64,000 bases of DNA from contig OZ241914.1 in NCBI GenBank assembly GCA_965203875.1, forward strand, positions 1,358,039-1,422,038. Reading direction: 5' to 3'. The notes below the pieces were generated by a model. That model did no database searches. It worked only from the letters and a program-made list of their open reading frames with translations, and was not told the DNA's origin. Shown here piece by piece: positions 17,245-64,000 of the stretch (positions within the stretch are counted from its first letter, which is position 1; the number at the start of each line of letters is the position of its first letter). The position numbers were made by a program, and so were the translations under genes. The stretch comes from Bdellovibrionales bacterium (lineage in GTDB: Bacteria; Bdellovibrionota; Bdellovibrionia; Bdellovibrionales; JAUICD01).

Positions 17245-17277
17245 AAATTACCTCCACAAAAAATTAAAGACTATTTG

Positions 17278-18828: not shown

Positions 18829-18838
18829 TATTCCTCCG

Positions 18839-22140: not shown

Positions 22141-22170
22141 ATTTTCTAAGATCCAAAGTTTTTAATATAA

Positions 22171-22252
22171 CAAATCTAAGCATAGAGCTTGCCGAGGTAC
22201 GCTGCTCCCCAGAGCAGCTTGAAAGCCTCTCTAAGCTCTATGCTTAGATTTG
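22171..22252. repeat. SR-2 element: a 42-bp conserved core flanked by perfect 20-bp inverted repeats
   Basis: caaatctaagcatagagctt (22171-22190) and aagctctatgcttagatttg (22233-22252) are exact reverse complements. The core is gccgaggtacgctgctc-ccca-gagcagcttgaaagcctctct. Confidence 0.9.
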
Positions 22253-22394
22253 TTTAAACTCTCCCTCTTATAAGCAGTAAATTGTGAATACTTAATACAT
22301 ATAAATACTACATTTTTATAGTGAAATTGAATTTTTTAACTAAATTATAAACAAATATGCTAATATCACTCTCTAAAGAAGCAACACGATATCC

Positions 22395-25298
22395 ATGAAA
22401 CTCAAGTTTATTAGACATATTAAAAAAGCAAGTACTTTTAAGAAAGTTGTTAAGACAAAAGTACTTTTATTTTCTGTAACATCATTTTTTATAACATTTG
22501 GTGTACTTAGTGTTTTTACTTACGCTAAAGCTCAAACTACTTCCTACACAGAGCCTAGCTTGGATGATCTAAGATTAGCTAATAAAGCTGTCTCCTCTTG
22601 CAGAGTCTTACAAGATGTTATTAGTGAAAATAGTCAGGTTGAAGACATCCCAGCTACTAAAGTTTTTGTTGAACTACAAAGAACAGAAGATGGGGATCTT
22701 CTAATAGACGATGAAGCTTGTAGAGAAAGTATTTTAGAGTTTGTTAAAAGTTTATGCACTTCTAGTTCTTCTAAGAACAATCTTTATTGTGAAAGATTAG
22801 GGATTAAGAAAAGTGAAAGTACTTTCGACTCAAATGAAGGTGCTAATACTAGTACTAATGATAATACTAATGGTAATGAAGTTGATCGTATAAGCGACTA
22901 TAAAAAAAGCGATTATAAGAAATTTGGTCAGTCGGCTATAGATAATTTAGGTATAGATCTATCAGACGATATAAGTTTTGAATCAAGTTTAGATGAAAAA
23001 GATCAACGGGAAGAAAGTAAGCTTAAGTTTTTGGCAGCTGGTACATTATTTTCTTTAAGTCCTGTAAAAAAGCTTAGAGTTGCTTCATTCGTTGGTAAGA
23101 ACTTAGCTATTAGAATAAAACCTGTTCTTAACGGAGCATTGTTAGTATTGGCTACCCTAGGTTTATCGTCTTGTAATGATGCTACAGGTCCTGAGCCAGT
23201 TAAACCTCCAACTGTAGTAGATACTCCTTGTACTAGAAGAGAAAGTGGTTATTTTCAATTATCAGGTGCTAATGTTGCTTGTATAAAGCTTCCTACCCTA
23301 ACTTATTCTTTTTTAACTAGCACAGGCGAAGAATCGGATTCTTCAAACGGTGATCCGGACACTACAATAAGAATAAAGTTTGATTCAGAAGTTGTTTTTA
23401 TAGACAACAACGAATGGCAAGAACTAACTCCAGAAAATGTCTTACAAATGCTGGAAATTAAAAAAAATAACACAGAAACTGATCTTACAACCCCAGAAGG
23501 CTCTATAAATCAGGATAACATATCCATAACCACAGAAAGCTCTAATACAGTTATAACTATAAAACCTCCAAATAGTTCTAATGGCAAAATCTATCATGCT
23601 GGGGAGTATTCTATGTTAACCAAAAACTATGCTCCAAAGACAGATGCTTCAAAAGTACAACAAAGTACTAATATAAATACTTATCTTGAAAGTATAAAAG
23701 AAGAATCCTCATTTAGTGTTACTGGCAATAATCCATGTGTTAGAGGCGAAACAGGTTACTTTTATTTTAGAGATTCTAACAACATGGCTAGATGTGAAAA
23801 CCTAATACCTAATATAAGTTATACTTTTAGTAAAAATAATGATCCTCAAGCTATCCTAAACATAAGCTTTGATTCTGATGTTGTGTACATAGACAACAAC
23901 GGTTGGTCTGAAATAGATAACAACAATATTTTAGACATGCTAGCCATCAATCCTGTTGATACTGGTACTGATGTTGATTATACGATTTATACTGGCGATT
24001 TATTAGTAGAAGATGGTCCTATTGATCAGGAACAAATCACCGTAACCAAAACAAATACTGGCATCACCATTGAAATAGATCCTCCTAACACTGGGTTGCA
24101 TTGGCGCAAGGTACATAAAATTGGGTTGTATCAAGCTGGTAACTACATGCTTTCTGCTAGTAATTATATTAGAAGATCAGATATTGATATAGTGATTCAA
24201 AACAACGCACTGGATGATTATCTAGATGCCGCAAAAGGTAGTAGTGGTACAGAGTTTTCTATTGATGCTGTCTCTAACTTATCCTGTGGATCAGAAACAT
24301 TTCAAGGTTATATGCCTACAACATCTATTGAAGACGAACACCAAGAGCCATCTTTTTGTGGAGCCTATGTGCATGAACTTCCACCTGAATTAGCTATAGC
24401 AGCACATCACCATTATCAACCCAGAAGAGCTGATCCTAATACAACCTATGTAATAGATATTGGCTTTGTAATGTCCGAAAGATATTCTACACCTGGTTGG
24501 GATGATTTTATAACGAACCATGTGCTTACTCATGTGAATGATATTTATCAAAGATCAGGAGTTAACGTAGAATTTAGAGCTAAAAGTGTTGTACCTTTTC
24601 AAGATTATAGGCACTATATACGCTGTCAGATTGATGCTCTAGATTTAAATAATAGATATGCTATATCCCGTGTTAATTTTGATTTGATTTCTATAATACG
24701 AAAGAATCATGGAGTTGATCTGATTTATACAATACAAAATTTTGAAGAAGAGACAAGAATTGCTGGGTTTGCTTCTGTTCGATTTAATGATCATTCATTG
24801 GAGGAAGCCAGAATATATGCCACTAGTGGTACGGTAGATCCTGGTTCTCATAACAAAGAAATACCTGACATGTTTGATCAACAGTACAGATTCATACATG
24901 TCCTAACACATGAACTGGGCCATAACCTAGGATTACTTCATAACAAGGAAGATTATGAAACATTCCCTGTTGAGAGCATTTTTCATCCTAAAGGGTATGG
25001 ATATATAGGGTCAGCTAATGCAATAGACGGACAAGCTTTAAGATATGGAACAGTGATGTCGATTCGTATAGACGACGTGCCTTTTTTCAGTGCTAATAAA
25101 GTGGTAACAAAAGAGGAATTATGTATAGACGAAGACAGGTACGACAATAAACTTGGCGGTGGATTTTGTACAGCCAGTTACGATAAACTAGCTGATGAAC
25201 AGCTTCGTTTAGGTGATGAGCAAGCAGACGCTTCGGAGGCTTTGCAGTACACAATAGAGGATGCCTCTAAGTATCACTGTGGTTCAGGATCATGTTAG
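22395..25298 (+). CDS. Multidomain metzincin zinc metalloprotease (reprolysin/ADAM-like catalytic motif) with an internal lipobox-like segment
   Basis: 967 aa. The order is a signal peptide (..FTYAKA/QT), a 4-Cys N-domain, then a hydrophobic stretch ending LATLGLSSC (Cys260). Two modules of about 175 aa follow. The C-terminal domain carries HELGHNLGLLH (HExxHxxGxxH) and a downstream YGTVMS (candidate Met-turn). Confidence 0.85.
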   Translation: MKLKFIRHIKKASTFKKVVKTKVLLFSVTSFFITFGVLSVFTYAKAQTTSYTEPSLDDLRLANKAVSSCRVLQDVISENSQVEDIPATKVFVELQRTEDGDLLIDDEACRESILEFVKSLCTSSSSKNNLYCERLGIKKSESTFDSNEGANTSTNDNTNGNEVDRISDYKKSDYKKFGQSAIDNLGIDLSDDISFESSLDEKDQREESKLKFLAAGTLFSLSPVKKLRVASFVGKNLAIRIKPVLNGALLVLATLGLSSCNDATGPEPVKPPTVVDTPCTRRESGYFQLSGANVACIKLPTLTYSFLTSTGEESDSSNGDPDTTIRIKFDSEVVFIDNNEWQELTPENVLQMLEIKKNNTETDLTTPEGSINQDNISITTESSNTVITIKPPNSSNGKIYHAGEYSMLTKNYAPKTDASKVQQSTNINTYLESIKEESSFSVTGNNPCVRGETGYFYFRDSNNMARCENLIPNISYTFSKNNDPQAILNISFDSDVVYIDNNGWSEIDNNNILDMLAINPVDTGTDVDYTIYTGDLLVEDGPIDQEQITVTKTNTGITIEIDPPNTGLHWRKVHKIGLYQAGNYMLSASNYIRRSDIDIVIQNNALDDYLDAAKGSSGTEFSIDAVSNLSCGSETFQGYMPTTSIEDEHQEPSFCGAYVHELPPELAIAAHHHYQPRRADPNTTYVIDIGFVMSERYSTPGWDDFITNHVLTHVNDIYQRSGVNVEFRAKSVVPFQDYRHYIRCQIDALDLNNRYAISRVNFDLISIIRKNHGVDLIYTIQNFEEETRIAGFASVRFNDHSLEEARIYATSGTVDPGSHNKEIPDMFDQQYRFIHVLTHELGHNLGLLHNKEDYETFPVESIFHPKGYGYIGSANAIDGQALRYGTVMSIRIDDVPFFSANKVVTKEELCIDEDRYDNKLGGGFCTASYDKLADEQLRLGDEQADASEALQYTIEDASKYHCGSGSC
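24909..24941 (+). other. Metzincin zinc-binding motif HELGHNLGLLH
   Basis: Codons cat gaa ctg ggc cat aac cta gga tta ctt cat, read directly from the sequence. Confidence 0.9.
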
Positions 25299-25327: not shown

Positions 25328-28300
25328 CTAATAACAGGTGCCTGTCTGTTGGTGACAACGGTTGTAGTCTGTCCACCAACAGTCACTATTTCTATCACAA
25401 CTAGCAGAAATTCCACAAGTTTTTCTTCCATATGAGATTCCACTATGGCATTGACCTTGGCCTCTACATCTTGTTCCACCTGTGCATCGACCACTTCTGC
25501 AATATGCACCACATGTATTTTTATCATCTGAGTCACAGATTACTCCTCCACTGTAGCAGGTTCCAGCTGCTGTATTATTATGAGTTCTGTATCCACAATT
25601 TTTATTCCCAACTTCACTTCGATAGTTTCTATTAACGTCTTGACAAGTCTCTGGGTCATCAGAATCAGTCCAACAAGTTTTTACACCACACACACTTGTT
25701 GAAGTACTGCCACTACCTTGATTTGTGGTATTTGGATGAGTACTTGGACAAGATACTTCACTTGATGTTTTAGCTACACGTGTACCGCATTGATCAGGAT
25801 TACACTTATAACAATCATTTGGGATGCAGGTAGGACCACTTCCATTCCAGCATGTTTTTACACCACATACTAGCGGTGTTTTTTTAGTACTCTTACAAGT
25901 TTGTTTTGAAGTATATGGATGAGTACTTGGACAAGATACTTCACTTGCTGTTTTAGCTACACGTGTACCGCATTGATCAGGATTACACTTATAACAATCA
26001 TTTGGGATGCAGGTAGGACCGCTTCCATTCCAGCATGTTTTTACACCACATACTCTGGTTGAACGACTATTACAAGTTTGTTGTGAAGTATTTGGATGAG
26101 TACTTGGACAAGATACTTCACGTGCTGTTTTAGCTACACAACTGTTACCACTACATTTTTGACAAGGATTGCAATCACACCGGGGAGGATCTACACAACT
26201 ACCACTTCCATTACAAACTTTGCCACCAGTACATTTGCTAGTTGGTGATCCACATCCATCAGAAGGACATTTCTTGCATGCATTTCTATCTTCAGTAGTT
26301 AAAGTACAAGGTGTCCCATTATTACAGCTTCCATTCACACAGAGGTTACATGTACCAGTACAATCTGAGGGTCCGCTACACTGAGGAGGATCTACACACC
26401 TACCACTTCCATTACAAATTTTGTTAAGAGCAATGCATCTATTAGTTGGTGAACCACATCCGTTAGAAGGACATACCATACAATTATTAGTGTCTGCTGT
26501 GCAGTAATCGGTACCTCCACGATAGCAAGTTTCTGGGTCAGGGTCTGGGTCAGATAATGTGCTGTCATCGTTACCAGTGCTATCATCTACGCCGCTATCA
26601 TCACCAGTATTTCCACCGCCTCCAGTGGATTTACACTTGTAACAATATGTATCGCATACACCGATAGCTTCAGGAGTTTTACCATCATCAGTACAGGCTG
26701 ATGAACTACTTTCTTTATGAGTAGGATGATTTGAGCAGTTTACAGCTTGAGCTATGCACTTACCTCCAACACACTCTTGGCAGGAGTTACAATCTGAAGG
26801 ACCACTACAGGAATGTTGACTTACACATCGATCTGCCAGACTTGTATCTGCTGAACAAACTTTTCCAAGTGCTGCACAAGCAGCATTATCGCAGGCACAA
26901 CCATTATTTACGCAAATATTACCAGGATTACAGCAAATAGCATTATTACGACAACTAGCATGATTAGCTGGACATTCACAACGGCCAGTAGCACTATTAC
27001 ACCTCTGAATACCAGTGCATGTTACCCCAGCACATGGATCCGTTGTAGTAGTCGTAGAGAAAATAAGTGCATCTTCTTGAGGCGATGGAGAGTAGTTACC
27101 ATACTCGTCCACTAACCTAAGCTCTATACTATACTCAATACTAGAATCAGGTGCAGGCAACTCAGTAAATCTTAAATGTAACTCCCTATCTTTACTACGA
27201 TCACCACCTTCAGGATCACTAGGATCACTCGCATATAGCTGGGCAGTCACAGGATGTGTATCATCACCAATAGTAAAGGAACTACCAGATAAATCATCAC
27301 ATAAAAACCAATCTCCAACTGGATGATCTATACCACTAATCTTTTTGTTCAAACGACATAAAAATACTCCCTTACTAAAACTGGAATTTAAACAATATCC
27401 TGCATCATTACCATCTGGACACCTATAACCCCTATCCCATACACGACCTTCTAGCTTAAACCTACATGTCGTAGAATTATCAGAATTTGTAGTACATTGA
27501 AGGGTAGTGGTCGTTGTTGAAGTTGATGAACTGTCTGAAGAATCAGCCTCAGAATTAGACACAGAAGATAGAGATATTGTAGATGGATTATGCTTATTAT
27601 TAGCTTTATTAGCCAGATTACTAACTAAGTTGTTACTAACTAACTTGTTGTTATTAGCTTTGCTACTAACTAACTTGTTGTTATTTTTGTTACTAGCTAA
27701 ATTAGCTTGAAAGCTATTATCAGGTGGTTGAGTCGTAGTAACTGAAGTAGTCTTTACTATTGTCTTATTGCGTGCTGTTACATACCTCTGAGAATAAGAA
27801 AATACCTTCTCAGCTCTGCATCTGATAGGATCATAACTAGATACTGCCTTCCTCTCCTCAACCTCCACAAATAACTTAAATCCAAGATCATGACGAATAT
27901 TAGCCTCAGGCAAACCTGATAAACTAGAAGCAAGCTTATAACCTAACTTACTCTTATCTGAATTCTCAGGTTTATCATAAACAGAACGAGGACGAACAAA
28001 AATAGGATGTATAGCCTTACTCTTATGCCTGTTACAACTATCTGTCTTCTCATTCTTGCTTATATCCCAAGGCCTTATACCAATACGAACATCATACTTA
28101 GACTTAGCTATGTAATTACTTACAGGAGTATAACTACTCACAGGCTCAACTGGACCAAAGGATAAGGACGATATATCAGATAAACGCTCACTTAACAAAA
28201 ATAACGACTCTCCGGTCAACCTATCCCACTTATATCCATCTGAAGATGAACCATTGTTGTCTGCTAGCCCTTGATGAGCTGTCCGTTTATCTTCATCCTT

Positions 28301-28510
28301 AAGCTTACGATATTTATTAGGATTCTCTTCAACCCACTTGTCTAAATCACCTAACTTTATCAAAGGAGCAGAAGACTCATGAGACTTAAACTCCATCTTC
28401 ACTAGATCAAAAGTCAAAGCTGAACTGTTACTAATTTGAGCATCTGATGGACATATAGAAATAGGATTAGTAGAAGATGTCTTTAAATACTTATTATACA
28501 AGTCCTCCAA
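25328..28510 (-). CDS. Giant Cys-rich / EGF-like repeat surface protein body, probably the 3' part of a phase-variable fusion with the pilin-like ORF upstream
   Basis: The ORF-track start is a TTG with no signal peptide. The same frame is actually open from 28684, so it runs through the G13 tract. The C-terminal 560 aa are dominated by Cys-rich modules (DPCAGVTCTGIQRCNSATGRCEC; CPSxGCGSPTxxC..CNGSGxCVDPPxC; three copies of VAKTxxEVSCPSTHP..CGVKTCWNGSGPTCIPNDCYKCNPDQCGTR). Confidence 0.8.
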   Translation of the reverse strand: MEDLYNKYLKTSSTNPISICPSDAQISNSSALTFDLVKMEFKSHESSAPLIKLGDLDKWVEENPNKYRKLKDEDKRTAHQGLADNNGSSSDGYKWDRLTGESLFLLSERLSDISSLSFGPVEPVSSYTPVSNYIAKSKYDVRIGIRPWDISKNEKTDSCNRHKSKAIHPIFVRPRSVYDKPENSDKSKLGYKLASSLSGLPEANIRHDLGFKLFVEVEERKAVSSYDPIRCRAEKVFSYSQRYVTARNKTIVKTTSVTTTQPPDNSFQANLASNKNNNKLVSSKANNNKLVSNNLVSNLANKANNKHNPSTISLSSVSNSEADSSDSSSTSTTTTTLQCTTNSDNSTTCRFKLEGRVWDRGYRCPDGNDAGYCLNSSFSKGVFLCRLNKKISGIDHPVGDWFLCDDLSGSSFTIGDDTHPVTAQLYASDPSDPEGGDRSKDRELHLRFTELPAPDSSIEYSIELRLVDEYGNYSPSPQEDALIFSTTTTTDPCAGVTCTGIQRCNSATGRCECPANHASCRNNAICCNPGNICVNNGCACDNAACAALGKVCSADTSLADRCVSQHSCSGPSDCNSCQECVGGKCIAQAVNCSNHPTHKESSSSACTDDGKTPEAIGVCDTYCYKCKSTGGGGNTGDDSGVDDSTGNDDSTLSDPDPDPETCYRGGTDYCTADTNNCMVCPSNGCGSPTNRCIALNKICNGSGRCVDPPQCSGPSDCTGTCNLCVNGSCNNGTPCTLTTEDRNACKKCPSDGCGSPTSKCTGGKVCNGSGSCVDPPRCDCNPCQKCSGNSCVAKTAREVSCPSTHPNTSQQTCNSRSTRVCGVKTCWNGSGPTCIPNDCYKCNPDQCGTRVAKTASEVSCPSTHPYTSKQTCKSTKKTPLVCGVKTCWNGSGPTCIPNDCYKCNPDQCGTRVAKTSSEVSCPSTHPNTTNQGSGSTSTSVCGVKTCWTDSDDPETCQDVNRNYRSEVGNKNCGYRTHNNTAAGTCYSGGVICDSDDKNTCGAYCRSGRCTGGTRCRGQGQCHSGISYGRKTCGISASCDRNSDCWWTDYNRCHQQTGTCY
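25690..26150 (-). repeat. In-gene tandem repeat, period 183/177 bp, about 3 copies
   Basis: tacttggacaagatacttcac recurs at 25741, 25924 and 26101. Copies 1 and 2 are nearly identical over more than 120 bp (ttttagctacacgtgtaccgcattgatcaggattacacttataacaatcatttgggatgcaggtaggacc...). Boundaries are approximate. Confidence 0.9.
27596..27705 (-). repeat. Short in-gene tandem / low-complexity repeat encoding N/K/L/V/S-rich peptide
   Basis: ctaactaacttgttgttatt occurs twice among related ttagc/ttact units. The encoded peptide is NNNKLVSSKANNNKLVSNNLVSNLANKANNK. Confidence 0.7.
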
Positions 28511-28598: not shown

Positions 28599-28889
28599 TT
28601 ATGACCAATCTTGCTTAAATTTTGGTCGCCCCCCCCCCCCCAAATTTTGGGTAGTAGAGGTAGTAGAAACAGTAGATATAGTAGCTACTTCTTTCTTAGG
28701 AGAAACCTTACTGCCATTCTTAGAAAAATGAGCCAATACATTACCAGCTACAGATGAACACATATAAGTATCATGCTTCCTCTGAGTTAAAGTCATCATA
28801 TTAGCCGACATAAACGTAACCACAAAACCTGTAGCTGATACCAACGCCAATCCTATCAATGTCTCCAACATCGTAAATCCCCCAGTCTT
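28599..28889 (-). CDS. Prepilin-type N-terminal (cleavage/methylation-like) domain ORF, truncated by frame at a G13 tract
   Basis: It encodes ..KTGGFTMLETLIGLALVSATGFVV.., a close match to the type IV pilin/pseudopilin G/FTLxE plus hydrophobic-helix signature. The only canonical start nearby is the ATG at 28871 (the M of FTMLE), preceded by GGGGGA. No start exists for a normal short leader. The ORF stops 8 codons after the G tract. Confidence 0.6.
   Translation of the reverse strand, partial: KTGGFTMLETLIGLALVSATGFVVTFMSANMMTLTQRKHDTYMCSSVAGNVLAHFSKNGSKVSPKKEVATISTVSTTSTTQNLGGGGRPKFKQDWS
28629..28641 (-). repeat. Homopolymeric tract: C13 on the plus strand, G13 on the coding strand
   Basis: Counted directly: ...ggtcg cc cccccccccc c aaatt... 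It sits exactly at the junction of the two overlapping reading frames. Confidence 0.95.
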
Positions 28890-29222
28890 GCGACTGGACG
28901 CATTTGCTGGCTTACAGCCAGCCGCTTGAACAAAAGCTAACAGTAAACTACGAAAACCTATTGTTCGATAACAACTTTCAGTTGGAGGCTTTTGCAACCT
29001 AACGGCTGCAGAACTTCGGAGTAACCAAGTTTTTCGTGATTCACATAAGCTTTTGAACCATCCATGGCGACTGGACGCATTTGCTGGCCAACCTACGGTT
29101 GGATCAGTTTGCTGGCCTTCGGCCAGCCTCTTAAACGAAAAATTAACTTGCGACTGCGGAGCTTTATAAAAACCAACCTTCGGCCCAATCAATCTGCCGG
29201 CTTTCAGCCGGCCCTTTAAAAG
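28890..29222. repeat. SR-3 cluster of REP-like short GC-rich hairpins
   Basis: gcgactggacgcatttgctgg occurs twice (28890, 29066). Hairpins present are gctggct-tac-agccagc, ccaacc-tac-ggttgg, gctggcc-ttc-ggccagc and gccggc-tttc-agccggc. The same family is found at 63706-63906. Confidence 0.85.
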
Positions 29223-29485
29223 AAAAGTATTTTTAAAACGAATAAATAAAGATCTTAAAAAAAACAAAATAAAAACCTAAAACTTAAAACCAAACTTACC
29301 AAACTCTAAATTCTACGACAAAAAACCCTTTTCACAAAGAAAAACAAAACTAAGTCCAGAAAAATACCCCTCACACACATATAAATTATCACATTGAGAC
29401 AGTACCTTCTGATACAGTACCTTTCATTTACAAAAAGGTAACCACGACATATTAAGCAGACTAAAATATGCAAGCTACAACAATA

Positions 29486-41482: not shown

Positions 41483-42484
41483 GTGTCAAACATAAATGTA
41501 GATCTTGATAAATATAAATTGGATTGCATAATAGGTCAAAGCCTTCCTATTATGAAAGTCATGCAACTCATAGACAGGGTTGCATCTTCATGTGCAAATG
41601 TACTAATCACAGGCGAAAGTGGAACAGGAAAGGAGTTGGTAGCTCAAGCACTTCATTACAATTCCGAACGATCCAAGGAACCATTGATAGCAATAAACTG
41701 CACCGCAATACCATCGGAGCTATTAGAAAGTGAATTGTTTGGACATGTAAAAGGTGCATTTACTGGTGCTACATCTGATAGAGTGGGTAGATTTGAAAAA
41801 GCAAAGAGGGGCACAATATTTCTAGACGAAATAGGGGACATGAGTCCTAGCCTACAGGCCAAACTGCTGAGAGTTTTGCAGGATAGAAAATTTGAACCAG
41901 TTGGTGATAGTAGGCCAAGACAATTTAATGCAAGGGTAATAACGGCTACAAATATAGATCTAGAGCGTGCGATAAAAGAAAATAGATTTAGAAGGGATTT
42001 ATATTATAGGCTAAATGTCATACCAATAAAAATGCCCTCTCTAAGAGAACGACCATCAGATATACCCATATTAACACATTATTTTTTAAAAATATTTACA
42101 AGACAAAATCACAAACAAATAAATGGAATTAGCAAAAGTGCTATGGATCAACTGTGTGCGTATCCTTGGCCTGGAAATATAAGGGAGTTAGAAAACTTAA
42201 TAGAACGATTGGTCATCATAAAAGATCATGGATTAATTGAATTAGCTGATATACCTGCAAAATACATAACCAACCAAAAAGTAAATCCAGATGATAAATT
42301 GCTAACTTATGTTCCTAACTCAGGGATAGATCTTAATGAAGCAATTGCTAGGTATGAAAATATGCTTTTGGTGGATGCTCTAAATAAGGTAAATTGGAAT
42401 AAGAACAGAGCAGCCAGCTTACTAAAATTGAACAGAACCACCTTGGTAGAAAAGATCAAAAGAAAAAAGTTGAAGCAAGTTTAA
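41483..42484 (+). CDS. Sigma-54-dependent transcriptional activator (AAA+ and HTH only, no sensory/receiver domain)
   Basis: GESGTGKELVAQALH (Walker A), the GAFTGA loop (KGAFTGA), an RFRRDLYYRL arginine-finger region and a C-terminal Fis-type HTH (NKNRAASLLKLNRTTL). The AAA+ core starts about 15 aa from the N-terminus. Confidence 0.9.
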   Translation: MSNINVDLDKYKLDCIIGQSLPIMKVMQLIDRVASSCANVLITGESGTGKELVAQALHYNSERSKEPLIAINCTAIPSELLESELFGHVKGAFTGATSDRVGRFEKAKRGTIFLDEIGDMSPSLQAKLLRVLQDRKFEPVGDSRPRQFNARVITATNIDLERAIKENRFRRDLYYRLNVIPIKMPSLRERPSDIPILTHYFLKIFTRQNHKQINGISKSAMDQLCAYPWPGNIRELENLIERLVIIKDHGLIELADIPAKYITNQKVNPDDKLLTYVPNSGIDLNEAIARYENMLLVDALNKVNWNKNRAASLLKLNRTTLVEKIKRKKLKQV

Positions 42485-42722
42485 AGGTTTTCAATTTTTA
42501 ATAAGTGTACATAGCGAAACGGCCCGACTGTAGGTCAAAGTGTAGCTATGTATACTTATTAAAAATGTTTACCAGCTCTCAAGGTATACTCCAAAATATT
42601 TGCTAAAGGTCTTCAATTTTATCTAATATTTGATTAGCAAAGCGGTAAGCCAGAAAGCTTAAAGCGTAGCTAAGAAAATATTTGATAAAAAGTTGTGCAA
42701 CGTTCAAGGTATATTCCAAAAG
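42482..42722 (+). repeat. SR-1 structured intergenic repeat, two tandem units, starting on the activator's TAA stop
   Basis: Unit 1 (42482-42596): TAAaggttttcaattttt / aataagtgtacatagc / core / gctatgtatacttatt / aaaaatgtttaccagctctcaaggtatactcc. Unit 2 (42604-42722): aaaggtcttcaatttt / atctaatatttgattagc / core with taagc-cagaaa-gctta / gctaagaaaatatttgat / aaaaagttgtgcaacgttcaaggtatattcc. Confidence 0.9.
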
Positions 42723-42752
42723 ATTCACATAAAGCCTTTAAAATTCTCATCT

Positions 42753-43625
42753 TTACAAAGACACCCAATCAGTGGGTTTTAAAAACTTAAAAAGTTTTTT
42801 TTCTTCTTTACCTATATTATTTTCATGCCTGTAATACCACCTAGCATGTCTGGGTAAAGGCATTAAAATTGATTCAACTCTTCCCTTGGTTTTCAATCCG
42901 AATAGTGTTCCTCTGTCATAGAGCAAATTAAACTCAACATATCTACCTTGTCTCCATTGCTGGAATTCTTTGTGGTGTTTGGTATAAGGTATATCCTTTC
43001 TCTTTTTTACAATGGCATCATAGGAATCTACAAAAGAATCTCCACAGGATTGTACCATTTTAAACACATCTTTAGCTTGCTGATAATCAAAAAATATCCC
43101 ACCAATTCCTCTAGTTTCATTTCTATGAGGTAAGTAAAAATATTCATCGCACTGTTTTTTAAATATATCGTACTTTCCATAAGGAGAAAGGGCGTGCTGA
43201 TAGGTTTTATGAAAGTGTTTACAATCTTCTTCAAAAATATAGTAAGGAGTTAGATCTGCACCACCACCATACCACGTATCATTTCCTCTTTTGATGAACC
43301 TATAGTTACAATGAACTGTTGGAACAAATGGATTTTTAGGGTGCATTACTACTGATATACCTGTGGCATAAAAATCAAGGCCACTTCCGAGTTTAAGCTT
43401 ATTTGCAAATTGAGCATCCAGCTTACCCTGTACTTCAGAAAAATTAATACATCCTTTTTCTAAAAAAGTGCCATCTTCGATAACTCTGGTCTCTCCACCA
43501 CCTGTAATCTCTGGTTTTTTCCACTTATCTATAACAAAAGGTTTTGTTTCTATTGTTTGAACCCAATTGCAGATTACATTTTGTAGATTCTTAAAATATG
43601 TTTTTTCTGGATTATATGGAGCCAT
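42753..43625 (-). CDS. hemF: Oxygen-dependent coproporphyrinogen III oxidase
   Basis: GGGADLTPYY, YFYLPHRNETRGIGGIFFD and RQGRYVEFNLLYDRGTLFGL match the HemF signature blocks. Confidence 0.92.
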   Translation of the reverse strand: MAPYNPEKTYFKNLQNVICNWVQTIETKPFVIDKWKKPEITGGGETRVIEDGTFLEKGCINFSEVQGKLDAQFANKLKLGSGLDFYATGISVVMHPKNPFVPTVHCNYRFIKRGNDTWYGGGADLTPYYIFEEDCKHFHKTYQHALSPYGKYDIFKKQCDEYFYLPHRNETRGIGGIFFDYQQAKDVFKMVQSCGDSFVDSYDAIVKKRKDIPYTKHHKEFQQWRQGRYVEFNLLYDRGTLFGLKTKGRVESILMPLPRHARWYYRHENNIGKEEKKLFKFLKPTDWVSL

Positions 43626-52381: not shown

Positions 52382-53521
52382 ATGTTTTCTAACAAGCAAA
52401 AATTAGTTTTTATTGTGGTAACAGCCTTGGTTGTTGGTGTGATTGGTATGATTTTTTCTAGCGGAAGAGATAAAGAAGAATATGACGACAAAAGATATTT
52501 AGGAGCCTTAGGTAAAAGAACAAATAGAGATAATACTGTTTGGTTAAATAAAGCTATCTCATTTAAAAAAACAACCAGAGAAACAGAGCCTGAAATTATC
52601 GAAGAACAACCAGAACTTAAGCCAGAACCTAAAAAAAAAGAAGCTAAGAAAGATAAGAAAAAAGCAAAAAAAAATGCCAAGAAAAAAGACGCTGAAAAGA
52701 AAGGGCCAGTAATGGTAAGAATGGGTGGTGGTCCGGTAGGTGAGGGTGCACAATCTCAGGACAACACAGGTGCAGTGGCTAATGAGGATTCTCCAGCCAA
52801 TAATCCTGTTCCAGCTGCTCCCTATGCTGCAACAGGAGGTGGTATTATGGATCCTGCTGCCACAGACAACTCCATGGGTTTTGGTAATCCGACCAACAAT
52901 CCGGATTATTGGACTAGCGTATTGATGGATTCACCATCATTAAGTAATTTGGAAAAATTAGTAGATGCATACAGATCCAACAGTATATCCGATGCCACTT
53001 TTTATTCGGTAGTATCGAACATGTTAGAAGATGACAATAGGCTTGTCAGACACTACGGGCTTTTGAGTTTATCCAGAACCCCAAGTGCAAGAAGCTTTAG
53101 AGAACTGGTAGAATTTAAAAATAATTCTCAGTATGAGGGTGCAACCAGTAAAGTAGATAGATCTCTAAAGTTATACACTCTATATAGACATGCCAACGTG
53201 GTGAACACAGTACTAGAAGATGAAGATGCTAATGTAAAATTGGAGGCTATAAAAATTGGAAAAGAGTCGGCCGAAAGAAGCCTGGCATCTGTAGATGATA
53301 CTTCTAAACCGGAAGAAGAACCAGAGTCTGTAGATAATATGGGAAGACCTGTAAGAGAACTTAGCAGCGTGAAAGCAGCTATAGATCCTGCCATATACGA
53401 AGAAATTGCGATTAAGATAGAAAGCATTTCTAGATCAGAACAGGATACACAAATTATAAACTCTGCTCAGGATGCACACAGCTCAATCAACAAATTGTTA
53501 GAGCAATACAAGGAAGAATAA
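52382..53521 (+). CDS. Hypothetical membrane-anchored protein with a Lys-rich low-complexity region
   Basis: N-terminal TM helix (LVFIVVTALVVGVIGMIF) and a KKKEAKKDKKKAKKNAKKK tract. The C-terminal half is possibly helical-repeat. Confidence 0.5.
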   Translation: MFSNKQKLVFIVVTALVVGVIGMIFSSGRDKEEYDDKRYLGALGKRTNRDNTVWLNKAISFKKTTRETEPEIIEEQPELKPEPKKKEAKKDKKKAKKNAKKKDAEKKGPVMVRMGGGPVGEGAQSQDNTGAVANEDSPANNPVPAAPYAATGGGIMDPAATDNSMGFGNPTNNPDYWTSVLMDSPSLSNLEKLVDAYRSNSISDATFYSVVSNMLEDDNRLVRHYGLLSLSRTPSARSFRELVEFKNNSQYEGATSKVDRSLKLYTLYRHANVVNTVLEDEDANVKLEAIKIGKESAERSLASVDDTSKPEEEPESVDNMGRPVRELSSVKAAIDPAIYEEIAIKIESISRSEQDTQIINSAQDAHSSINKLLEQYKEE

Positions 53522-53600
53522 AAGTCTTCATTTTCAAATGACTCGAAGGCTCCGCTTCAAGTCTCACACTCATCTTTGTTGCATATGAGGTATCAGTTTT
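53519..53600 (+). repeat. Degenerate SR-1-like fragment starting on the TAA stop of 52382..53521
   Basis: TAAaagtcttcatttt... The tail ...catctttgttgcat also occurs at the distal end of the 13.5-kb copy. Weakly conserved. Confidence 0.5.
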
Positions 53601-55671: not shown

Positions 55672-55764
55672 GGAGGGGTGGGTGAGTGGTTTAAACCAGC
55701 AGTTTGCTAAATTGTCGTACGGATTATATCCGTACCGAGAGTTCGAATCTCTCCCCCTCCGCCA
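55672..55764 (+). tRNA. tRNA-Ser (anticodon GCT)
   Basis: Perfect acceptor stem GGAGGGG/CCCCTCC, anticodon loop TT-GCT-AA, a long variable arm (gtacggat-tata-atccgtac), T-arm GAGAG-TTCGAAT-CTCTC and an encoded CCA. Confidence 0.95.
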
Positions 55765-55800
55765 CATACCCACAAAGTAGTGTGGCATAAAACTATTTTT
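55759..55800 (+). repeat. 42-bp direct repeat, left copy (last 6 nt of tRNA-Ser plus downstream hairpin/T-run)
   Basis: ccgccacatacccacaaagtagtgtggcataaaactattttt is identical to 57745-57786. Confidence 0.95.
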
Positions 55801-55912: not shown

Positions 55913-57237
55913 ATGAGAAAGGGACTTCGTAAAAAAATTGAAGATGCCAAGAAAATGCATTCCCAAAAAATACAGAGTAACCGAATTTACCTTGGGGACA
56001 ACTTAGAGATAATGAAATCCCTCGAAAGTGGTAAAATCGATCTGATCTATATCGACCCTCCATTTTGTGCTCAAAATGTTTTGGAATCAAAAGCCTGGGG
56101 TAAAAAAATATCCTTTAATGACAAATGGGGAGGTGGTATCCATTCCTATATCAAATGGCTTGTCCCTAGACTTCGTCAGTGTCACCGGCTTTTAAAAGAT
56201 GTCGGAATTTTTGTTTTGCATTTGGATTGGAGAAGTGTTCACTATGCCCGGGTTGAACTTGATAAAATTTTTGGAGACAAACAATTCTTAAACCAAATAA
56301 TATGGCAATACAAAACTGGAGGAAATTCAAAAAAATTTTTTGCAAGAAAGCATGATGTTTTGTTGATATACTCTAAATCGAATAAGTGGATATATAATGT
56401 ACAAAAAGAAAAATCTTATACAAAGGCAAAAAATAGGCAGGCAGGTATTGTAAACCTAGGTCAAGGAGAAGCAGAATTTTTTGAAGATAAAAATGGAGTT
56501 TTCAGTTGGATTAATATGAGAGATGTTTGGGACATTCCTTATATCAATTCTCAAGCACGAGAAAGACTTGGTTATCCGACGCAAAAACCATTGGCATTGC
56601 TTGAAAGAATAGTAACAGCATTTACAAACGAAGGAAATATTGTTGCCGATTTTTTCTGCGGCTGCGGTACAACTCTAGATGCAGCTCAAAATCTCAGTCG
56701 CAAATGGTTGGGTGCTGATATTTCTCCAGACGCTATTGCTGTTATTAAAGGGAGGATGCTTAGAGAACACAATATTAAAGTTGAAGTTGTCGATACAAAC
56801 CAGCTTACTAGGGAGGAAATCTATAAGCTAAAGCCTCTTGAATTTGAAAAGAAGATGGTGGAAATGCTAGGAGGAACGCCTAATACCAAACAGACTGGGG
56901 ACAGGGGTATCGACGGCTGGACGCACGATCACAGACCTATACAGGTGAAGATGTCCAAAAATGTAGGAAGACCTGTCATCGATAATTTTATAAAAATGTA
57001 AAACAAGGCAACGGGAAGGGAGTTATTATTGCCATGAGTTTTTCAAGAACGGCTCATGAGGAAGTTGCTAAACTTGCAAACGAAGAAGGATTGGAAATCG
57101 GTCTTATACCAAGTGACGATCTTATCAGGGATGCAGGAAATACCTCCAAAAGCAAACCTGAAAAAGCATTAGAAAGATCAAGAAAAGTCGTACCTAAAAG
57201 AAAGGACAGAAGAAAAAAGACGACAAAGTCGTCTTAG
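55913..57237 (+). pseudogene. Beta-class N6A/N4C DNA methyltransferase fused to an Mrr-like (PD-(D/E)xK) nuclease domain, split by a frameshift at A5 (56992-56996)
   Basis: DLIYIDPPF (motif IV) lies upstream of FFCGCGTT (motif I), which is the beta-class order. The C-terminus reads GDRGIDGW...IQVKMSKNVGRPVIDNFIKM*. The +1 frame continues KNVKQGNGKGVIIAMSFSRTAHEE..., which is open from 56986. One extra A restores a single 441-aa ORF. Confidence 0.75.
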
Positions 57238-57744: not shown

Positions 57745-57786
57745 CCGCCACATACCCACAAAGTAGTGTGGCATAAAACTATTTTT
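57745..57786 (+). repeat. 42-bp direct repeat, right copy
   Basis: Identical to 55759-55800 and lies 47 bp upstream of tRNA-Arg(ACG). Confidence 0.95.
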
Positions 57787-60499: not shown

Positions 60500-61186
60500 G
60501 TGAAAAAGTCAGGCGGTAAGAGAATAAGGAATTTGAAAAGCAAGTTGGAGTATAAGCCTCATCCTGTGGCCAAAGCTTTGGACATCGTTTTATCTTCGTC
60601 TAATACTAAATTTGATGAGTCTATAGATGTTGCTGTTCGTTTGGGTATAGATGTGAAAAATCCAGAGCATCAAGCCAGAGGTTCTGCTATTTTGCCGCAC
60701 GGTTTGGGCAAAAATATAAAATTATTGGTGATTGCTAAAGGTGAGAAAGTTTTGGAGGCTAAGAACGCTGGAGCTGATCATGTGGGTTCTGACGACATGA
60801 TTGATAAGATTAAAAATTCCTGGCTTGATTTTGATAAAATAATCGCAACTCCGGATATGATGGCATCTGTATCCAAGGTGGCTAAGATATTGGGACCTAA
60901 GGGTCTTATGCCAAACCCGAAAGTTGGTACCGTAACTTTTGATTTAGAAAAGACTATTAAGGCGGAAAAAAAGGGAAAGTTAAGTTTTAAATCTGACAAA
61001 TCTGGGATAGTGCATGGAGCGTTTGGAAAAAAGAGTATGGGTAAGGAAGCTCTGGAAGAAAATTTGCTTAGCTTCTTGGGTACTCTTCATAGAGGAAAAC
61101 CTTCTAATAGCAAGGGTGTGTACTTTAAGTCGGTAACTTTATCTTCTACAATGGGCCCTGGTGTACCTGTCGAGTATAAAGGTTAA
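60500..61186 (+). CDS. rplA: 50S ribosomal protein L1
   Basis: 228 aa with FDESIDVAVRLGID and GPKGLMPNPKVGTVT. Confidence 0.95.
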   Translation: MKKSGGKRIRNLKSKLEYKPHPVAKALDIVLSSSNTKFDESIDVAVRLGIDVKNPEHQARGSAILPHGLGKNIKLLVIAKGEKVLEAKNAGADHVGSDDMIDKIKNSWLDFDKIIATPDMMASVSKVAKILGPKGLMPNPKVGTVTFDLEKTIKAEKKGKLSFKSDKSGIVHGAFGKKSMGKEALEENLLSFLGTLHRGKPSNSKGVYFKSVTLSSTMGPGVPVEYKG

Positions 61187-61292
61187 AGATCTTCAATTTT
61201 ATCAAATGTTTGATTAGTGCAGCGGCAAGCCGTAAGGCCTAGAGCGTAGCTAGGAGAATATTAGAGCGCAGCTCTCAAGGTAGATTATAAAA
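61184..61292 (+). repeat. SR-1 unit (partly decayed) starting on the rplA TAA stop
   Basis: TAAagatcttcaatttt / atcaaatgtttgattag / core with gcc-gtaa-ggc ...agagcgtagc / decayed 3' arm / cagctctcaaggtagatt. Confidence 0.8.
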
Positions 61293-61376
61293 GAATTGTC
61301 TAAGGCCTCAAAGTTTTTGATAAGCACACACAGCAGCTTACCGTTTCAATTAGACAAACATCAGAATTACAAATTC

Positions 61377-62612
61377 TTATGTAGATGGACCGCATCGTGT
61401 AGACTCCACATGAAAGTAAGCATGCGATAGTGTCTCTGCTAACAGATCTCCACCACTGTCTTCATTACCACTTCCACCGTCGCCACTGTCCTTTATAAAT
61501 TGGTAAGCCAATGGTGCATCCTTTGAATATACATAGTTTTCAAATTCAATTCTATAACTACTATCTGTTCTATACATATCCTCTGGAGGCTTTATCCTAA
61601 TATAAGAATTGTTATTAATATCAGTACCGGCAGTAATTTTATTTAACGTTATATCACTACCTAATAAGTTATTGTCACTAAGCTCACAATCTGAATAATC
61701 ATCACTACTATCATCGTCACAGTTTTCGATCCTTCTAATGTCCACCATATCCAGTACACGCATAACAGAAATTGGTGCATGTCCTCTTTTATCTATATAA
61801 CTAACCAACCCATCAAAAGTAATTATAATTTCAGTACATGGGTTTACACTCATTACACCGTCAGTTTGATTCTTAAATCGTTTGCCACCAACTAAAAACT
61901 CCAGCTCTGCTGTTGGAAGTTTTATGCATGCAACCTCTTCTTTAGCACTACCTTCTTCTCCGTCGCTACCTTCTTCTTGCCTGGTCAACAAAATGTAACC
62001 GCTGTCCCCTCTATTACAAATTTGCTCAGGACCTGTAATATTATCACACGAAGCCAAACCCATAGTGGCAAGTATCAACATTGCACCACTTAAAACGGGT
62101 TTTACAAACTTAAAACCCCTAACAGGCGTGAAAAAAAGCAAAGAGCTAGCAACAGAAAATGAAAATTCTTTCTTACTACTAACATCTTGGTCCCAATCAT
62201 AAGAATCTAAATTTGAAATAGCAGACTTGCCAAAAGACTTATAGTTGCTGTCTTGAAGTATTCCCAATTTACTACAGTACAGTTGGTTTTGATAAGAAAC
62301 AGAAGAGCACAATGAATACACAAAATCTAGTATGGTATCCACACACTGCGTGTTCTCTATTAATAAATTTCCATCTTGGTCTGTTGCTTGTAATGCATCT
62401 AATATATCTTGCGATGGAACACTAGTATTGTGTGTAATCGAGTTTGCAACATCATTTAAAACTCCACATTGTGATAAGGCATCATGTAACAATTCTAAGT
62501 CTTGCTCACTAGGGGTGGTGTAACTTTCCATCCCTTGATCCAGGAAACTGTCCTGTGCATTTGCAAAAATTGAAAATAGAAAAGTTAATAAATATACCTT
62601 AAAGGCTCTCAA
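61377..62612 (-). CDS. Paralogue of the N-terminal two-thirds of 22395..25298 (signal peptide, 4-Cys domain, internal lipobox-like segment, one ~175-aa module; no protease domain)
   Basis: Collinear similarity to 22395..25298: SQCGVLNDV/SSCRVLQDV, LLIENTQCVDTILDFVYSLC/LLIDDEACRESILEFVKSLC, NQLYCSKLGI/NNLYCERLGI, KPVLSGAMLILATMGLASCDNITGPE/KPVLNGALLVLATLGLSSCNDATGPE and VACIKLPT. TTG start after GGAGGG. Confidence 0.8.
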   Translation of the reverse strand: MRAFKVYLLTFLFSIFANAQDSFLDQGMESYTTPSEQDLELLHDALSQCGVLNDVANSITHNTSVPSQDILDALQATDQDGNLLIENTQCVDTILDFVYSLCSSVSYQNQLYCSKLGILQDSNYKSFGKSAISNLDSYDWDQDVSSKKEFSFSVASSLLFFTPVRGFKFVKPVLSGAMLILATMGLASCDNITGPEQICNRGDSGYILLTRQEEGSDGEEGSAKEEVACIKLPTAELEFLVGGKRFKNQTDGVMSVNPCTEIIITFDGLVSYIDKRGHAPISVMRVLDMVDIRRIENCDDDSSDDYSDCELSDNNLLGSDITLNKITAGTDINNNSYIRIKPPEDMYRTDSSYRIEFENYVYSKDAPLAYQFIKDSGDGGSGNEDSGGDLLAETLSHAYFHVESTRCGPST

Positions 62613-63906: not shown

Positions 63907-64000
63907 ACAAAAATGGTTATAAAATTTCATATAAAATACTAGGTAATGTTCTACGTATGCCAAAAAAGAATTTTGTTATTATAAAATGTGCACAGTCACC

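Follow-up and report, generated by a model that had tools for sequence, protein, structure and literature searches.

SR-1 is a family of intergenic repeats built around a hairpin whose three nested helices retain their pairing while the sequence drifts. The family represents a newly found relative of REP/REPIN-type repeats and not a new kind of system. The reading favored here, with a probability of roughly one half, is that SR-1 consists of lineage-specific, mosaic structured repeats comparable to REPINs and BIMEs, and that the hairpin acts in cis as RNA. The family was studied in a 64-kb stretch of DNA (the window), together with sequence from further strains and a sister species. The question at stake is whether REP-like repeats are kept for the host, through an RNA function, or for themselves, as transposition substrates; the stop-codon anchoring, strand-specific folding, and fast strain turnover of SR-1 make it useful in this respect. 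SR-1 offers a clean natural case of repeats with conserved structure and free sequence, and its conserved unpaired flanks point to a specific partner.

Unit Plan and Inventory

An SR-1 unit spans about 110 bases and consists of a long hairpin between conserved unpaired flanks (about 45 nt). The order of elements is a 5′ flank (consensus TAAAGGTCTTCAATTTT), the hairpin, a 3′ flank (..GTTGYSCARC..CAAGGTATAYTCC), and a linker. Arrays end with one more 5′-flank-like module, and the trailing modules at arrays B, C, and D have a common consensus of their own, TAAGGCYTYAAAGTTTT. The outer helix P1 (20-23 bp) encloses a purine-rich 3x3 loop (GAA/GUA), followed by the 2-bp helix P2 and the small hairpin P3. 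Variants of the loop are GAA/GUA, GUA/GAA, AAA/GUA, GCA/GUA, and GUA/GGA, with the middle pair swapping between A.U and U.A. A kink-turn was ruled out for this internal loop, which is symmetric and lacks the 3-nt bulge that precedes tandem sheared G.A/A.G pairs in that motif, GA not being invariant on both strands. The A tract 3′ of the P1 stem pairs with the T tract preceding the stem, and inspection revealed no pairing between the 5′ flank and the 3′ flank.

Searches with nhmmer identified five arrays in the window, with five complete and four partial units; overall, the partial units number about five (Table 1). A compound flank pattern matched five times in the window and not once in 100 shuffles. 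The composition of the arrays is mosaic, and truncated as well as GC-rich unit types are present. Nearly all long non-tRNA intergenic spacers of the window are SR-1. A preliminary description of this DNA had reported SR-1 units at 42482-42722, four arm pairs, and five inner hairpins; two units are indeed present there, head-to-tail, and all of the arms and hairpins could be located in the sequence. Its estimate of about 10 units in 64 kb holds if truncated units are counted, but not for complete units only.

Table 1. Positions of SR-1 arrays, their components, and lone flanks within the window.
Feature	Position	Strand	Description
Array A	13570-13697	-	Lone 5′ flank (13697-13681; TAA stop of the methylmalonyl-CoA mutase gene), then complete unit (13680-13570)
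Lone degenerate 5′ flank AATAGTCTTTAATTTT	17260-17275	-	2 nt past the stop of gene 17278-18915; weak call, 3 mismatches
Array B	21891-22163	+	3′ of the stop of an ankyrin-repeat gene
Array B stub	21891-21928	+	5′ flank stub and AAGGCCCTTCGTTTTTGAAT
Array B, complete unit	21929-22042	+	
Array B, Y unit	22043-22134	+	5′-truncated; then linker and terminal module to 22163
Unit C1	42482-42592	+	5′ flank TAAAGGTTTTCAATTTT, takes the TAA stop of the sigma-54 activator gene; 3′ flank GTTTACCAGCTCTCAAGGTATACTCC
Unit C1, helices			P1 arms ATTTTTAATAAGTGTACATAGC / GCTATGTATACTTATTAAAAAT; loop GAA/GUA; P2 AC/GU; P3 GACU-GUA-GGUC
C1-C2 linker	42593-42603	+	AAAATATTTGC
Unit C2	42604-42717	+	Own TAAAGGTCTTCAATTTT flank; 3′ flank GTTGTGCAACGTTCAAGGTATATTCC; P1 with tandem G.A/A.G mismatch; P3 UAAGC-CAGAAA-GCUUA
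Array C end	42718-42746	+	Linker AAAAGATTCACA and terminal 5′-flank-like module TAAAGCCTTTAAAATTC
hemF (convergent), stop	42753		Beyond array C
Lone degenerate 5′ flank TAAAAGTCTTCATTTTC	53519-53575	+	Takes the TAA stop of gene 52382-53521; then short hairpin and 3′-flank-like CGCTTCAAGTCTCAC
Array D	61184-61337	+	3′ of the rplA stop
Array D unit	61184-61288	+	3′ arm truncated; then linker
Array D terminal module	61301-61318	+	TAAGGCCTCAAAGTTTTT; then remnant 5′ arm (61319-61337)
Array E	62734-63061	-	Downstream of hsp20's own terminator
Array E, Z unit	63061-62963	-	5′ flank, GC-rich hairpin, 3′ flank
Array E, Y unit	62962-62861	-	5′-truncated; then linker
Array E, third unit	62850-62764	-	Without 5′ arm; then linker and terminal module to 62734

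Conservation of the Hairpin

Compared with dinucleotide shuffles, folding z scores range from -3.7 to -5.7 in all but one of the five units of the window; the value for the exception, unit D, in which the 3′ arm is truncated, is -0.6. The mean energy of the duplex between 5′ and 3′ arms is -20.4 kcal/mol for a unit's own arms, versus -9.0 kcal/mol for arms swapped with those of other units and -5.6 kcal/mol for shuffled arms, and none of 20000 permutations matched the energy sum of the own arms. This comparison of own and swapped arms is decisive: arm complementarity exceeds what palindromic AT-rich sequence would yield by chance.

Covariation was assessed on 11 non-redundant sense-strand loci from the window, a second strain, and the sister species. 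In this small sample (11 complete units, about 200 kb), aligned by a covariance model to which fitting favors structure somewhat, 90.3% of the paired cells hold a pair versus 69.3% in shuffles (0/500), and a two-sided change is seen in 20 of 26 pairs versus 12.3 ± 1.8 (0/500). Slid partners, used as a control, were 32-42% paired. These results bear out the preliminary description's claim of compensatory variation in two nested helices between conserved flanks, and they add a third, as P1, P2, and P3 all covary. Even the 2-bp P2 does so (A-U/G-C and C-G/U-G/U-A). Such compensatory variation of nested helices between conserved flanks indicates that the structure is under constraint. Decay or truncation affects several copies, namely D, the Y units, and R2/R3, the last of which contain A.C mismatches. 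Selection does not act on every copy.

Strand Specificity and Position at Stop Codons

The constraint is strand-specific, pairing being kept on the sense strand of the upstream gene. Among P1 mismatches, the ratio of G.U to A.C is 10:1 in the focal species and 14:4 overall, and U.G pairs are present in P2 and P3 as well; DNA hairpins, too, tolerate G.T best among mismatches. When both strands are folded as RNA, the sense strand gains 2-7.6 kcal/mol over its antisense counterpart in all eight focal units and is the more stable one in nine of 11 units overall, which identifies one strand as the folding strand. Units A and E2 have a common 3′ arm, and their 5′ arms differ by U.G->C-G and A-U->G.U. 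These changes are one-sided and keep the pairing only through wobble.

The leading 5′ flank of an array normally provides the stop codon of the co-oriented gene upstream or lies directly against it. In four of the five arrays it supplies that gene's TAA stop. The window has eight independent 5′ flanks that either lead an array or stand alone, and six of them begin 0-2 nt past the stop of a co-oriented gene; strain 2 provides a seventh case. The stem begins 9 nt past the stop in arrays C and D. The neighboring genes, among them rplA and those for methylmalonyl-CoA mutase, a sigma-54 activator, and hsp20, lie on both strands and are scattered over 50 kb. Arrays D and E are located about 1.5 kb apart in opposite orientations, each following its own upstream gene. 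Co-directional genes on both sides are found at arrays B and E only, so that orientation is tested independently of the stop-codon rule at these two arrays alone. N1 and R2/R3 sit in divergent promoter regions, not past a stop codon.

Variation Between Strains and Species

Arrays gain, lose, and reshuffle units between near-identical strains. Strains with 97-99% identity differ in presence or absence and in copy number at four of six comparable loci (B, D, E, and N1). In a sister strain, array B carries an extra copy, about 240 bp long, of the stub, the unit, and the Y unit. The site of array D holds only a lone 5′ flank in strains 2 and 3, and that of array E holds a single intact unit in strain 2. 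The presence or absence of the unit at rplA between strains indicates that it is dispensable. Filled sites have two bracketing 5′-flank-like modules and empty sites have one; the leading module agrees with the trailing one in 11 bases at E and at R1, a locus-specific variant among them. The rplA, hemF, NifU, and P0121 proteins differ in the sister strains. A paralogue search for gene 61377-62612 returned only two relatives.

At about 81% amino-acid identity, the sister species preserves the flanks, the GAA/GUA loop, P2, and an AAA-loop P3, with unrelated P1 sequences, and it also carries simpler hairpins between the same flanks. No further array was found in a left-hand extension (L054). In a more distant relative, a covariance-model match (L051, 305-400) proved to be an unrelated hairpin, AT-rich and perfectly paired, that lacks both the flanks and the loop.

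Database searches suggest that SR-1 is private to one uncultured bacterial lineage. Rfam 15 contains no match to SR-1, and only three tRNAs reach the gathering threshold in the whole window; in a permissive Rfam scan of 42440-42760, the best matches were generic long-hairpin miRNA models, far under threshold. Among GTDB genomes, in a set that does not include the source species, a two-flank pattern gave 46 matches, one per unrelated genome. None was confirmed by nhmmer, and these matches are therefore attributed to chance. The JGI metagenomes yielded no match with a pattern covering all five window units, nor with a second pattern common to the sister species. Plasmid and phage databases likewise contained no SR-1 match.

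Comparison With Known Repeats

REPINs are REP doublets that form hairpins and are mobilized by RAYT transposases; their conserved ends surround a less conserved spacer, which keeps a long hairpin via compensatory changes (Bertels and Rainey, 2011; PMC3116915). SR-1 resembles REPINs and BIMEs in being extragenic, about 100 nt long, and present in high copy number, in its location at gene 3′ ends, and in its presence or absence between strains. As in REPINs, the end regions are conserved and a hairpin is kept by compensatory change in the less conserved middle, and as in BIMEs, the units form mosaic tandem arrays. The preliminary description had named as candidates an RNA motif or a hairpin substrate, such as a REP/MITE-like element, of a single-strand transposase; the REP/RAYT reading is not supported. 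Unlike in REPINs, neither flank is an inverted copy of the other. When the 5′ flank (AAAGGTCTTCAATTTT) is set against the reverse-complemented 3′ flank (GGAATATACCTTGAACGTTGCACAACATTTT), only TTTT/A at the stem base is common to both. Neither flank has a REP palindrome, or any foldable palindrome. GTAG is not invariant; it lies inside the hairpin, not beside the stem, at the 3′ side of the internal loop in six of 11 units (GUAGC in five and GUAGA in one), the other five having GAAGC or GGAAC. Further differences from REPINs are that the variable part of SR-1 is the stem and the conserved part the unpaired flanks, that orientation follows the upstream gene, whose stop codon the element supplies, and that nested P2/P3 helices and a conserved 3x3 purine loop are present. 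No RAYT was found in the window, in about 11 kb of flanking sequence, or in contigs of relatives, and there is no sequence similarity. Nor is SR-1 a MITE: such elements have conserved terminal inverted repeats that match a transposase's ends and short target-site duplications specific to each locus, and the inverted repeats of SR-1 are the P1 arms only, which differ between copies.

Functionally, the closest elements to SR-1 are those of the REP/REPIN/BIME and BOX types. Pneumococcal BOX elements have a modular boxA-boxBn-boxC structure with a variable module number. SR-1 shares with BOX, ERIC, and Correia-type elements a modular build, variable module number, predicted stable RNA structures, an intergenic location (transcribed in the known families), and the lack of a transposase of its own. 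In those families, either the stem sequences are retained or terminal inverted repeats occur together with short target duplications. In contrast, SR-1 lacks terminal inverted repeats, its hairpin apart, and is anchored at stop codons; it has no sequence similarity to them. The MIRUs of Mycobacterium are intergenic tandem repeats that reach, at their ends, into the stop and start codons of the genes on either side. Like SR-1, they form head-to-tail tandem units of 50-100 nt in intergenic spacers, the first unit overlapping a stop codon, and their copy number varies between strains. Unlike SR-1, which begins with TAA and is non-coding, MIRUs do not form long hairpins whose arms covary, and they may contain short coupled ORFs.

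Possible Function and Alternative Explanations

SR-1 is probably co-transcribed as a 3′-UTR hairpin. Arrays would form part of a transcript, either as the upstream gene's 3′ UTR or as the 5′ leader of the next gene, and the RNA hairpin would constitute a cis barrier or processing site at the 3′ end, where it could shield the transcript from 3′ exonucleases or serve as a possible RNase III target. Alternatively, the stem may interfere with terminating ribosomes where it lies 9 nt past the stop (arrays C and D). Contacts with protein are probable at the conserved single-stranded flanks and at the GAA/GUA loop. Copy number may shift via recombination or slippage between the directly repeated 5′-flank modules, and spread to new stop codons may depend on some trans-acting function. 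A sigma-70 promoter in the 3′ flank was considered and dropped: array C has no sigma-70-like site, and the single consensus match, on the minus strand over the terminal module and linker of array D, lies in a region no richer in such matches than shuffles.

It is possible, at clearly less than even odds, that SR-1 is instead non-autonomous mobile DNA like REPINs or elements of the IS200/IS605 type. In that case, one DNA strand would fold, and a recombinase, of the HUH type or another, whose gene lies at some other place in the 1.2-1.6 Mb genome, would cut the conserved single-stranded flanks and insert the unit beside a short target, either TAA or a 5′ flank already present; pairing would then be kept because the enzyme needs the hairpin. 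The multi-copy nature of the family, its polymorphism between strains, the two modules at filled sites against one at empty sites, the 11 identical bases at E and R1, and its strand-specific folding are consistent with this explanation, as is the compensatory pattern shared with REPINs (PMC3116915). The polymorphisms are, however, equally explained by deletions or unequal crossovers between direct repeats, and the adjacent, oppositely oriented arrays D and E do not fit a lagging-strand-only rule. HUH enzymes recognize, and attC sites present, a hairpin of free sequence between conserved unpaired flanks, a logic that would suit SR-1. However, the flanks are not inverted repeats of each other, there is no REP pair, and GTAG is not invariant. 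The preliminary description had noted that no such transposase lies in the window, which is confirmed: no transposase, integrase, reverse transcriptase, or HUH enzyme was detectable there or in about 11 kb of flanking sequence from a sister strain, and contigs of relatives, about 70 kb in all, likewise yielded neither a transposase nor a recombinase. The modules that bracket filled sites might be target-site duplications. The 11 identical bases at E and R1 speak for this; against it, the trailing modules at B, C, and D follow their own consensus and therefore look like part of the element, not like fresh target duplications. The sequence outside the P1 arms is the same at all loci, which likewise argues against random target duplications.

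SR-1 might also represent the cassettes of an undescribed site-specific system, or else a new class of protein-bound 3′-UTR RNA motif, although we regard this as doubtful. As cassettes, folded single strands would be inserted at a 17-nt attachment motif with TAA, so that units would arrive precisely at stop codons and build up mosaic arrays. As an RNA motif, the flanks, the GAA/GUA loop, and the hairpin would control mRNA ends in a small-genome lineage related to Bdellovibrionota.

Correction of quasipalindromes by intramolecular template switching during replication is an established mutation mechanism in bacteria; it turns imperfect inverted repeats into perfect ones, changing both arms at once, and it could in principle produce arm complementarity as a by-product, without selection. 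Several P1 stems are almost perfectly Watson-Crick over at least 20 bp, and the arrays clearly undergo slippage and recombination. This explanation is nevertheless unlikely. Template switching yields Watson-Crick pairs and is strand-blind, so that it predicts neither the preponderance of G.U mismatches relative to A.C (10:1 in the focal species) nor the one-sided, wobble-keeping changes between units A and E2. It does not explain the conserved unpaired GAA/GUA loop with its A.U/U.A middle swap. P2 and the hairpins of 3-6 bp are too short to template repair; therefore, their covariation is unexplained as well.

It is very unlikely that the SR-1 hairpins serve the upstream genes as ordinary intrinsic terminators and share flanking sequence by chance. 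They are stable stem-loops right after stops, often between convergent genes, but an A tract, not a T tract, follows the stem. Canonical terminators with a stem and a T tract exist in this genome, for example between hsp20 and array E; a consensus scan recovered this one, at 63164-63129, and found none in arrays C, D, and E. Moreover, units occur in head-to-tail tandem and in 5′ regions (N1 and R2/R3), with their long conserved unpaired flanks. Finally, the idea that units are integron-type attC sites marking gene cassettes is effectively refuted by the gene context: units of about 110 nt with imperfect dyad symmetry, a start at the stop codon of the preceding ORF, strand-specific folding, and structure conserved above sequence (conserved ends with a variable yet paired center) recall the Vibrio cholerae repeats, but the neighbors are housekeeping genes, tandem units have no ORF between them, no intI, attI, integrase domain, or cassette array was found, the flanks are not complementary R'' (RYYYAAC)/R' (GTTRRRY) or R/L boxes, and the GTTRRRY motif is absent.

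SR-1 also gives rise to length variation at the strain level and to artefacts of assembly or annotation, such as the spurious ORF 62762-63037.

Architecture and distribution of SR-1 units

Units of SR-1, a structured repeat family of about 110 bases, share a constant plan. Each opens with a 5′ flank (TAAAGGTCTTCAATTTT) and runs into the outer helix P1 (20–23 bp), the base of which is formed by the TTTT and AAAA of the flanks; a symmetric, purine-rich 3×3 internal loop (GAA/GUA) is followed by the 2-bp helix P2 and the small hairpin P3, and the unit closes with a 3′ flank (AAAATGTTGTGCAACGTTCAAGGTATATTCC; variant ..ACCAGCTCTCAAGGTATACTCC). The arm pairs and inner hairpins quoted in the preliminary description were all located in the sequence. 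After every unit of array C comes an 11–12-nt linker, AAAAGATTnnC.

A pattern requiring both flanks matches the window five times, against none in 100 shuffles, and nhmmer recovers five complete and four partial units across five arrays. These arrays explain all five non-tRNA intergenic spacers of at least 190 bp in the window. Folding z-scores range from −3.7 to −5.7 for four of the five window units, the exception being D, with its truncated 3′ arm. A 91-aa ORF (62762–63037, minus strand) lies wholly inside array E and is almost certainly spurious.

SR-1 arrays, units, lone flanks and differences between strains
Feature	Window coordinates	Strand	Remarks
Array A	13570–13697	−	
Array B	21891–22163	+	
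Array C	42482–42746	+	
Array C interval	42482–42722		between the stop of the sigma-54 activator gene (41483–42484, +) and the convergent hemF stop (42753–43625, −)
Unit C1	42483–42592	+	head-to-tail with C2
Unit C2	42605–42717	+	head-to-tail with C1
Closing module of array C	42730–42746		another 5′-flank-like module
Array D	61184–61337	+	
Array E	62734–63061	−	
Lone degenerate 5′ flank			at stop of gene 52382–53521
Lone degenerate 5′ flank			2 nt past stop of gene 17278–18915
Lone degenerate 5′ flank, strain 2			3 nt past another stop
Locus B, strain 2			extra, diverged copy of stub (5′ flank), unit and Y unit (5′-truncated), about 240 bp
Locus D, strains 2 and 3			only TAAAGGTCTTCAATTTTT at rplA stop; spacer 33 bp vs 190 bp in the window
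Locus E, strain 2			one intact unit
Locus E, window and strain 3			Z unit (GC-rich hairpin), 5′-truncated Y unit, and unit with 5′ arm replaced at a shared TAGC motif
Locus N1			strain 2: present; strain 3: single 5′-flank-like module only

Relatives and turnover

The GTDB representative set yielded only chance matches to SR-1, and JGI metagenomes, plasmids and phages yielded none. Related sequence was reached via methylmalonyl-CoA mutase and L11 proteins: two further strains of the focal species, strains 2 and 3, at 97–99% DNA identity (ENA ERZ25067941 contig_1: L047, L052, L054; ERZ25070167: L053), a sister species at ~81% protein identity (ERZ25068966: L048, L050) and, at ~75%, a relative further removed (ERZ25084461: L049, L051). 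The nearest named homologues are Bdellovibrionales MAGs, and a Bdellovibrio MIDAS adhesin model partially matches one window protein. With contigs of 1.24 and 1.60 Mb, the genome is a small one; its G+C content is ~36%, and ankyrin-repeat proteins are among its products.

Three full units, R1–R3, were found in L050 of the sister species. They have in common with focal units the 5′ flank (AAAGGTCTTC), the GAA/GUA loop, P2 and the 3′ flank (GTTGCCCAGCTATGTAGGTATAAATAC); their P3 reads GYGC-AAA-GCAC, and their P1 sequences (CTGAAACTGAAAGTTGCC...) are unrelated to those of the focal species. Simpler hairpins also occur there between this same pair of flanks. Neither units nor gene-end 5′ flanks were found in the 40 kb sampled from the 75% relative, where a lone weak covariance-model match was rejected as an unrelated hairpin.

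Because the three focal strains group differently at loci D and E, several events or recombination are needed. Modules resembling the 5′ flank bracket filled sites, and one module remains at empty sites. Units inserting at a module of this kind would give that pattern, and so would hairpin-stimulated deletion between direct repeats. The trailing module has a consensus of its own at B, C and D (TAAGGCYTYAAAGTTTT) and matches the leading module over 11 nt at E and R1.

Covariation of the nested helices

Eleven complete units (A, B, X2, C1, C2, D, E2, N1, R1, R2 and R3), all from about 200 kb, were segmented by hand, with some judgement at the tops of P1 and in P3 of C1, R1 and D. On exchange of arms, mean duplex energy was −20.4 kcal/mol with a unit's own 3′ arm, −9.0 with those of other units, −6.3 between sequence classes and −5.6 with shuffled arms; eight of the 11 arms ranked their own partner first, and none of 20000 permutations reached the observed sum. 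The complementarity thus exceeds AT-rich chance. In a covariance-model alignment of 11 non-redundant sense-strand loci, which is fitted to the structure and whose shuffle control ignores relatedness, 90.3% of cells were paired (69.3% in column shuffles), 20 of 26 pairs showed two-sided changes (12.3 ± 1.8) and the covariation score was 0.56 (0.21), none of these values being reached in 500 shuffles. Sliding partners by 1–3 columns lowered the paired share to 32–42%. P2 covaries as well (A-U/G-C; C-G/U-G/U-A), and a double change from G-C to A-U there separates two recently duplicated array B units in strain 2. At the middle of the 3×3 loop, flanked by G·A and A·G, A·U and U·A swap between strands (GAA/GUA vs GUA/GAA). 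Arm exchange and alignment together uphold the preliminary claim of compensatory variation in nested helices between conserved flanks.

Strand and position relative to genes

Among P1 mismatches that one transition can create, G·U outnumbers A·C by 14 to 4 overall and by 10 to 1 in the focal species, whereas a strand-blind process is expected to give about 1:1; further U·G pairs are present in P2 and P3. Units A and E2 have an identical 3′ arm, and their 5′ arms differ by U·G to C-G and A-U to G·U. RNA folding makes the sense strand stabler than the antisense in nine of 11 units, including all eight from the focal species (by 2.1–7.6 kcal/mol); with DNA parameters the advantage is smaller, its direction unchanged. 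The G·U excess, the pairing kept through wobbles and the sense-strand stability therefore exclude double-strand or template-switch processes as the sole source of arm complementarity. Strand-specific folding fits RNA and single-stranded DNA alike.

In arrays A–D the leading 5′ flank contributes the stop codon, TAA, of the gene upstream in the same orientation (encoding a mutase, an ankyrin protein, the sigma-54 activator and RplA, respectively); this TAA belongs to the repeat, since internal units begin with TAAAGG too. With 54 genes in 64 kb, about 0.002 is the probability that a random site falls no more than 3 nt past the stop of a gene in its own orientation; six of the eight independent window sites do so. 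Arrays D and E, ~1.5 kb apart, have opposite orientations, each matching its own upstream gene. Exceptions are array E, which comes after the canonical terminator of hsp20 itself, and N1 (strain 2) and R2/R3 (sister species), which occupy divergent promoter regions and share the orientation of the gene that follows them, R2 ending 15 nt upstream of that gene's ATG. SR-1 hairpins have no T tract. A scan found no sigma-70-like site in array C and one consensus match in array D; this match is on the minus strand and covers the terminal module and linker, and such sites are no more frequent in the region than in its shuffles.

In most bacteria rplA is followed by rplJ-rplL-rpoB; here the neighbours downstream of rplA (60500–61186) are an SR-1 array and a lineage-specific gene in convergent orientation. 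Genes 22395–25298 and 61377–62612, each with an SR-1 array upstream, are paralogues (32% identity; shared part without known domain) that evolve fast between strains (92–97% vs 99–100% for neighbours) and have homologues only in the two related species.

Identity and proposed mechanism

In membership tests SR-1 was rejected as a terminator, as an attC site and as a MITE, and it belongs to no Rfam family. REPINs, extragenic elements of ~100 nt in which conserved ends enclose a spacer whose long hairpin is maintained through compensatory changes (PMC3116915), are the closest described phenomenon. However, SR-1 flanks are not inverted REPs, the defining symmetry of REPINs, and GTAG is not invariant; conversely, the nested helices, head-to-tail arrays, stop-codon anchoring and gene-linked orientation of SR-1 have no counterpart in REPINs. 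With that symmetry absent and the other classes rejected, SR-1 is filed as a new form of structured interspersed intergenic repeats, a class already known.

The most likely mechanism, with a probability of roughly one half, is that SR-1 would be transcribed along with the upstream gene and that its sense-strand RNA hairpin would be a cis-acting element of the mRNA 3′ end, arrays growing and shrinking through predicted recombination between 5′-flank modules. The flanks and GAA/GUA loop are probably protein contacts. In the main rival reading, which is less likely, the same strand may fold as DNA, on which a transposase or recombinase specific for single strands, itself unseen, would act. A domain search of the window and retrievable flanks found no encoded transposase, integrase, reverse transcriptase or HUH domain; the preliminary description had likewise noted no such transposase in the window. 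The cis-acting RNA and the DNA substrate are not mutually exclusive.

Other structured and variable elements

A long composite hairpin (22165–22262; strain 2: L047, about 2800–2710) lies between array B, which it directly follows, and gene 22395. Its outer stem of 22 bp encloses the hairpin GCTGCTC-CCCA-GAGCAGC; when the two 99%-identical strains are compared, A→G in the 5′ arm is matched by T→C in the 3′ arm, a compensatory change that marks a second structured element. Another repeat family (28890–29225 and 63708–63912) consists of small hairpins, rich in G+C and closed by GNRA-like loops (e.g., GGCTGGCTGTAAGCCAGC, CCAACCGTAGGTTGG), which are concentrated in 5′ regions of genes and resemble in style both the GC-rich Z unit and the P3 hairpins of SR-1.

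An exact 42-nt direct repeat (55759–55800 and 57745–57786), its first copy overlapping the 3′ end of tRNA-Ser (55672–55764), brackets a DNA methylase gene (55913–57001), whose counterpart in strains 2 and 3 is longer and carries an additional Mrr-like domain; the segment has the look of a small variable island that entered at the tRNA. Either phase variation or a fault in the assembly could account for a run of 12 G (about 28628–28639) within ORF 28599–29267. In the 1060-aa ORF 25328–28510, which has no Pfam match, 183-nt tandem repeats (25666–26139) constitute a repeated protein module.
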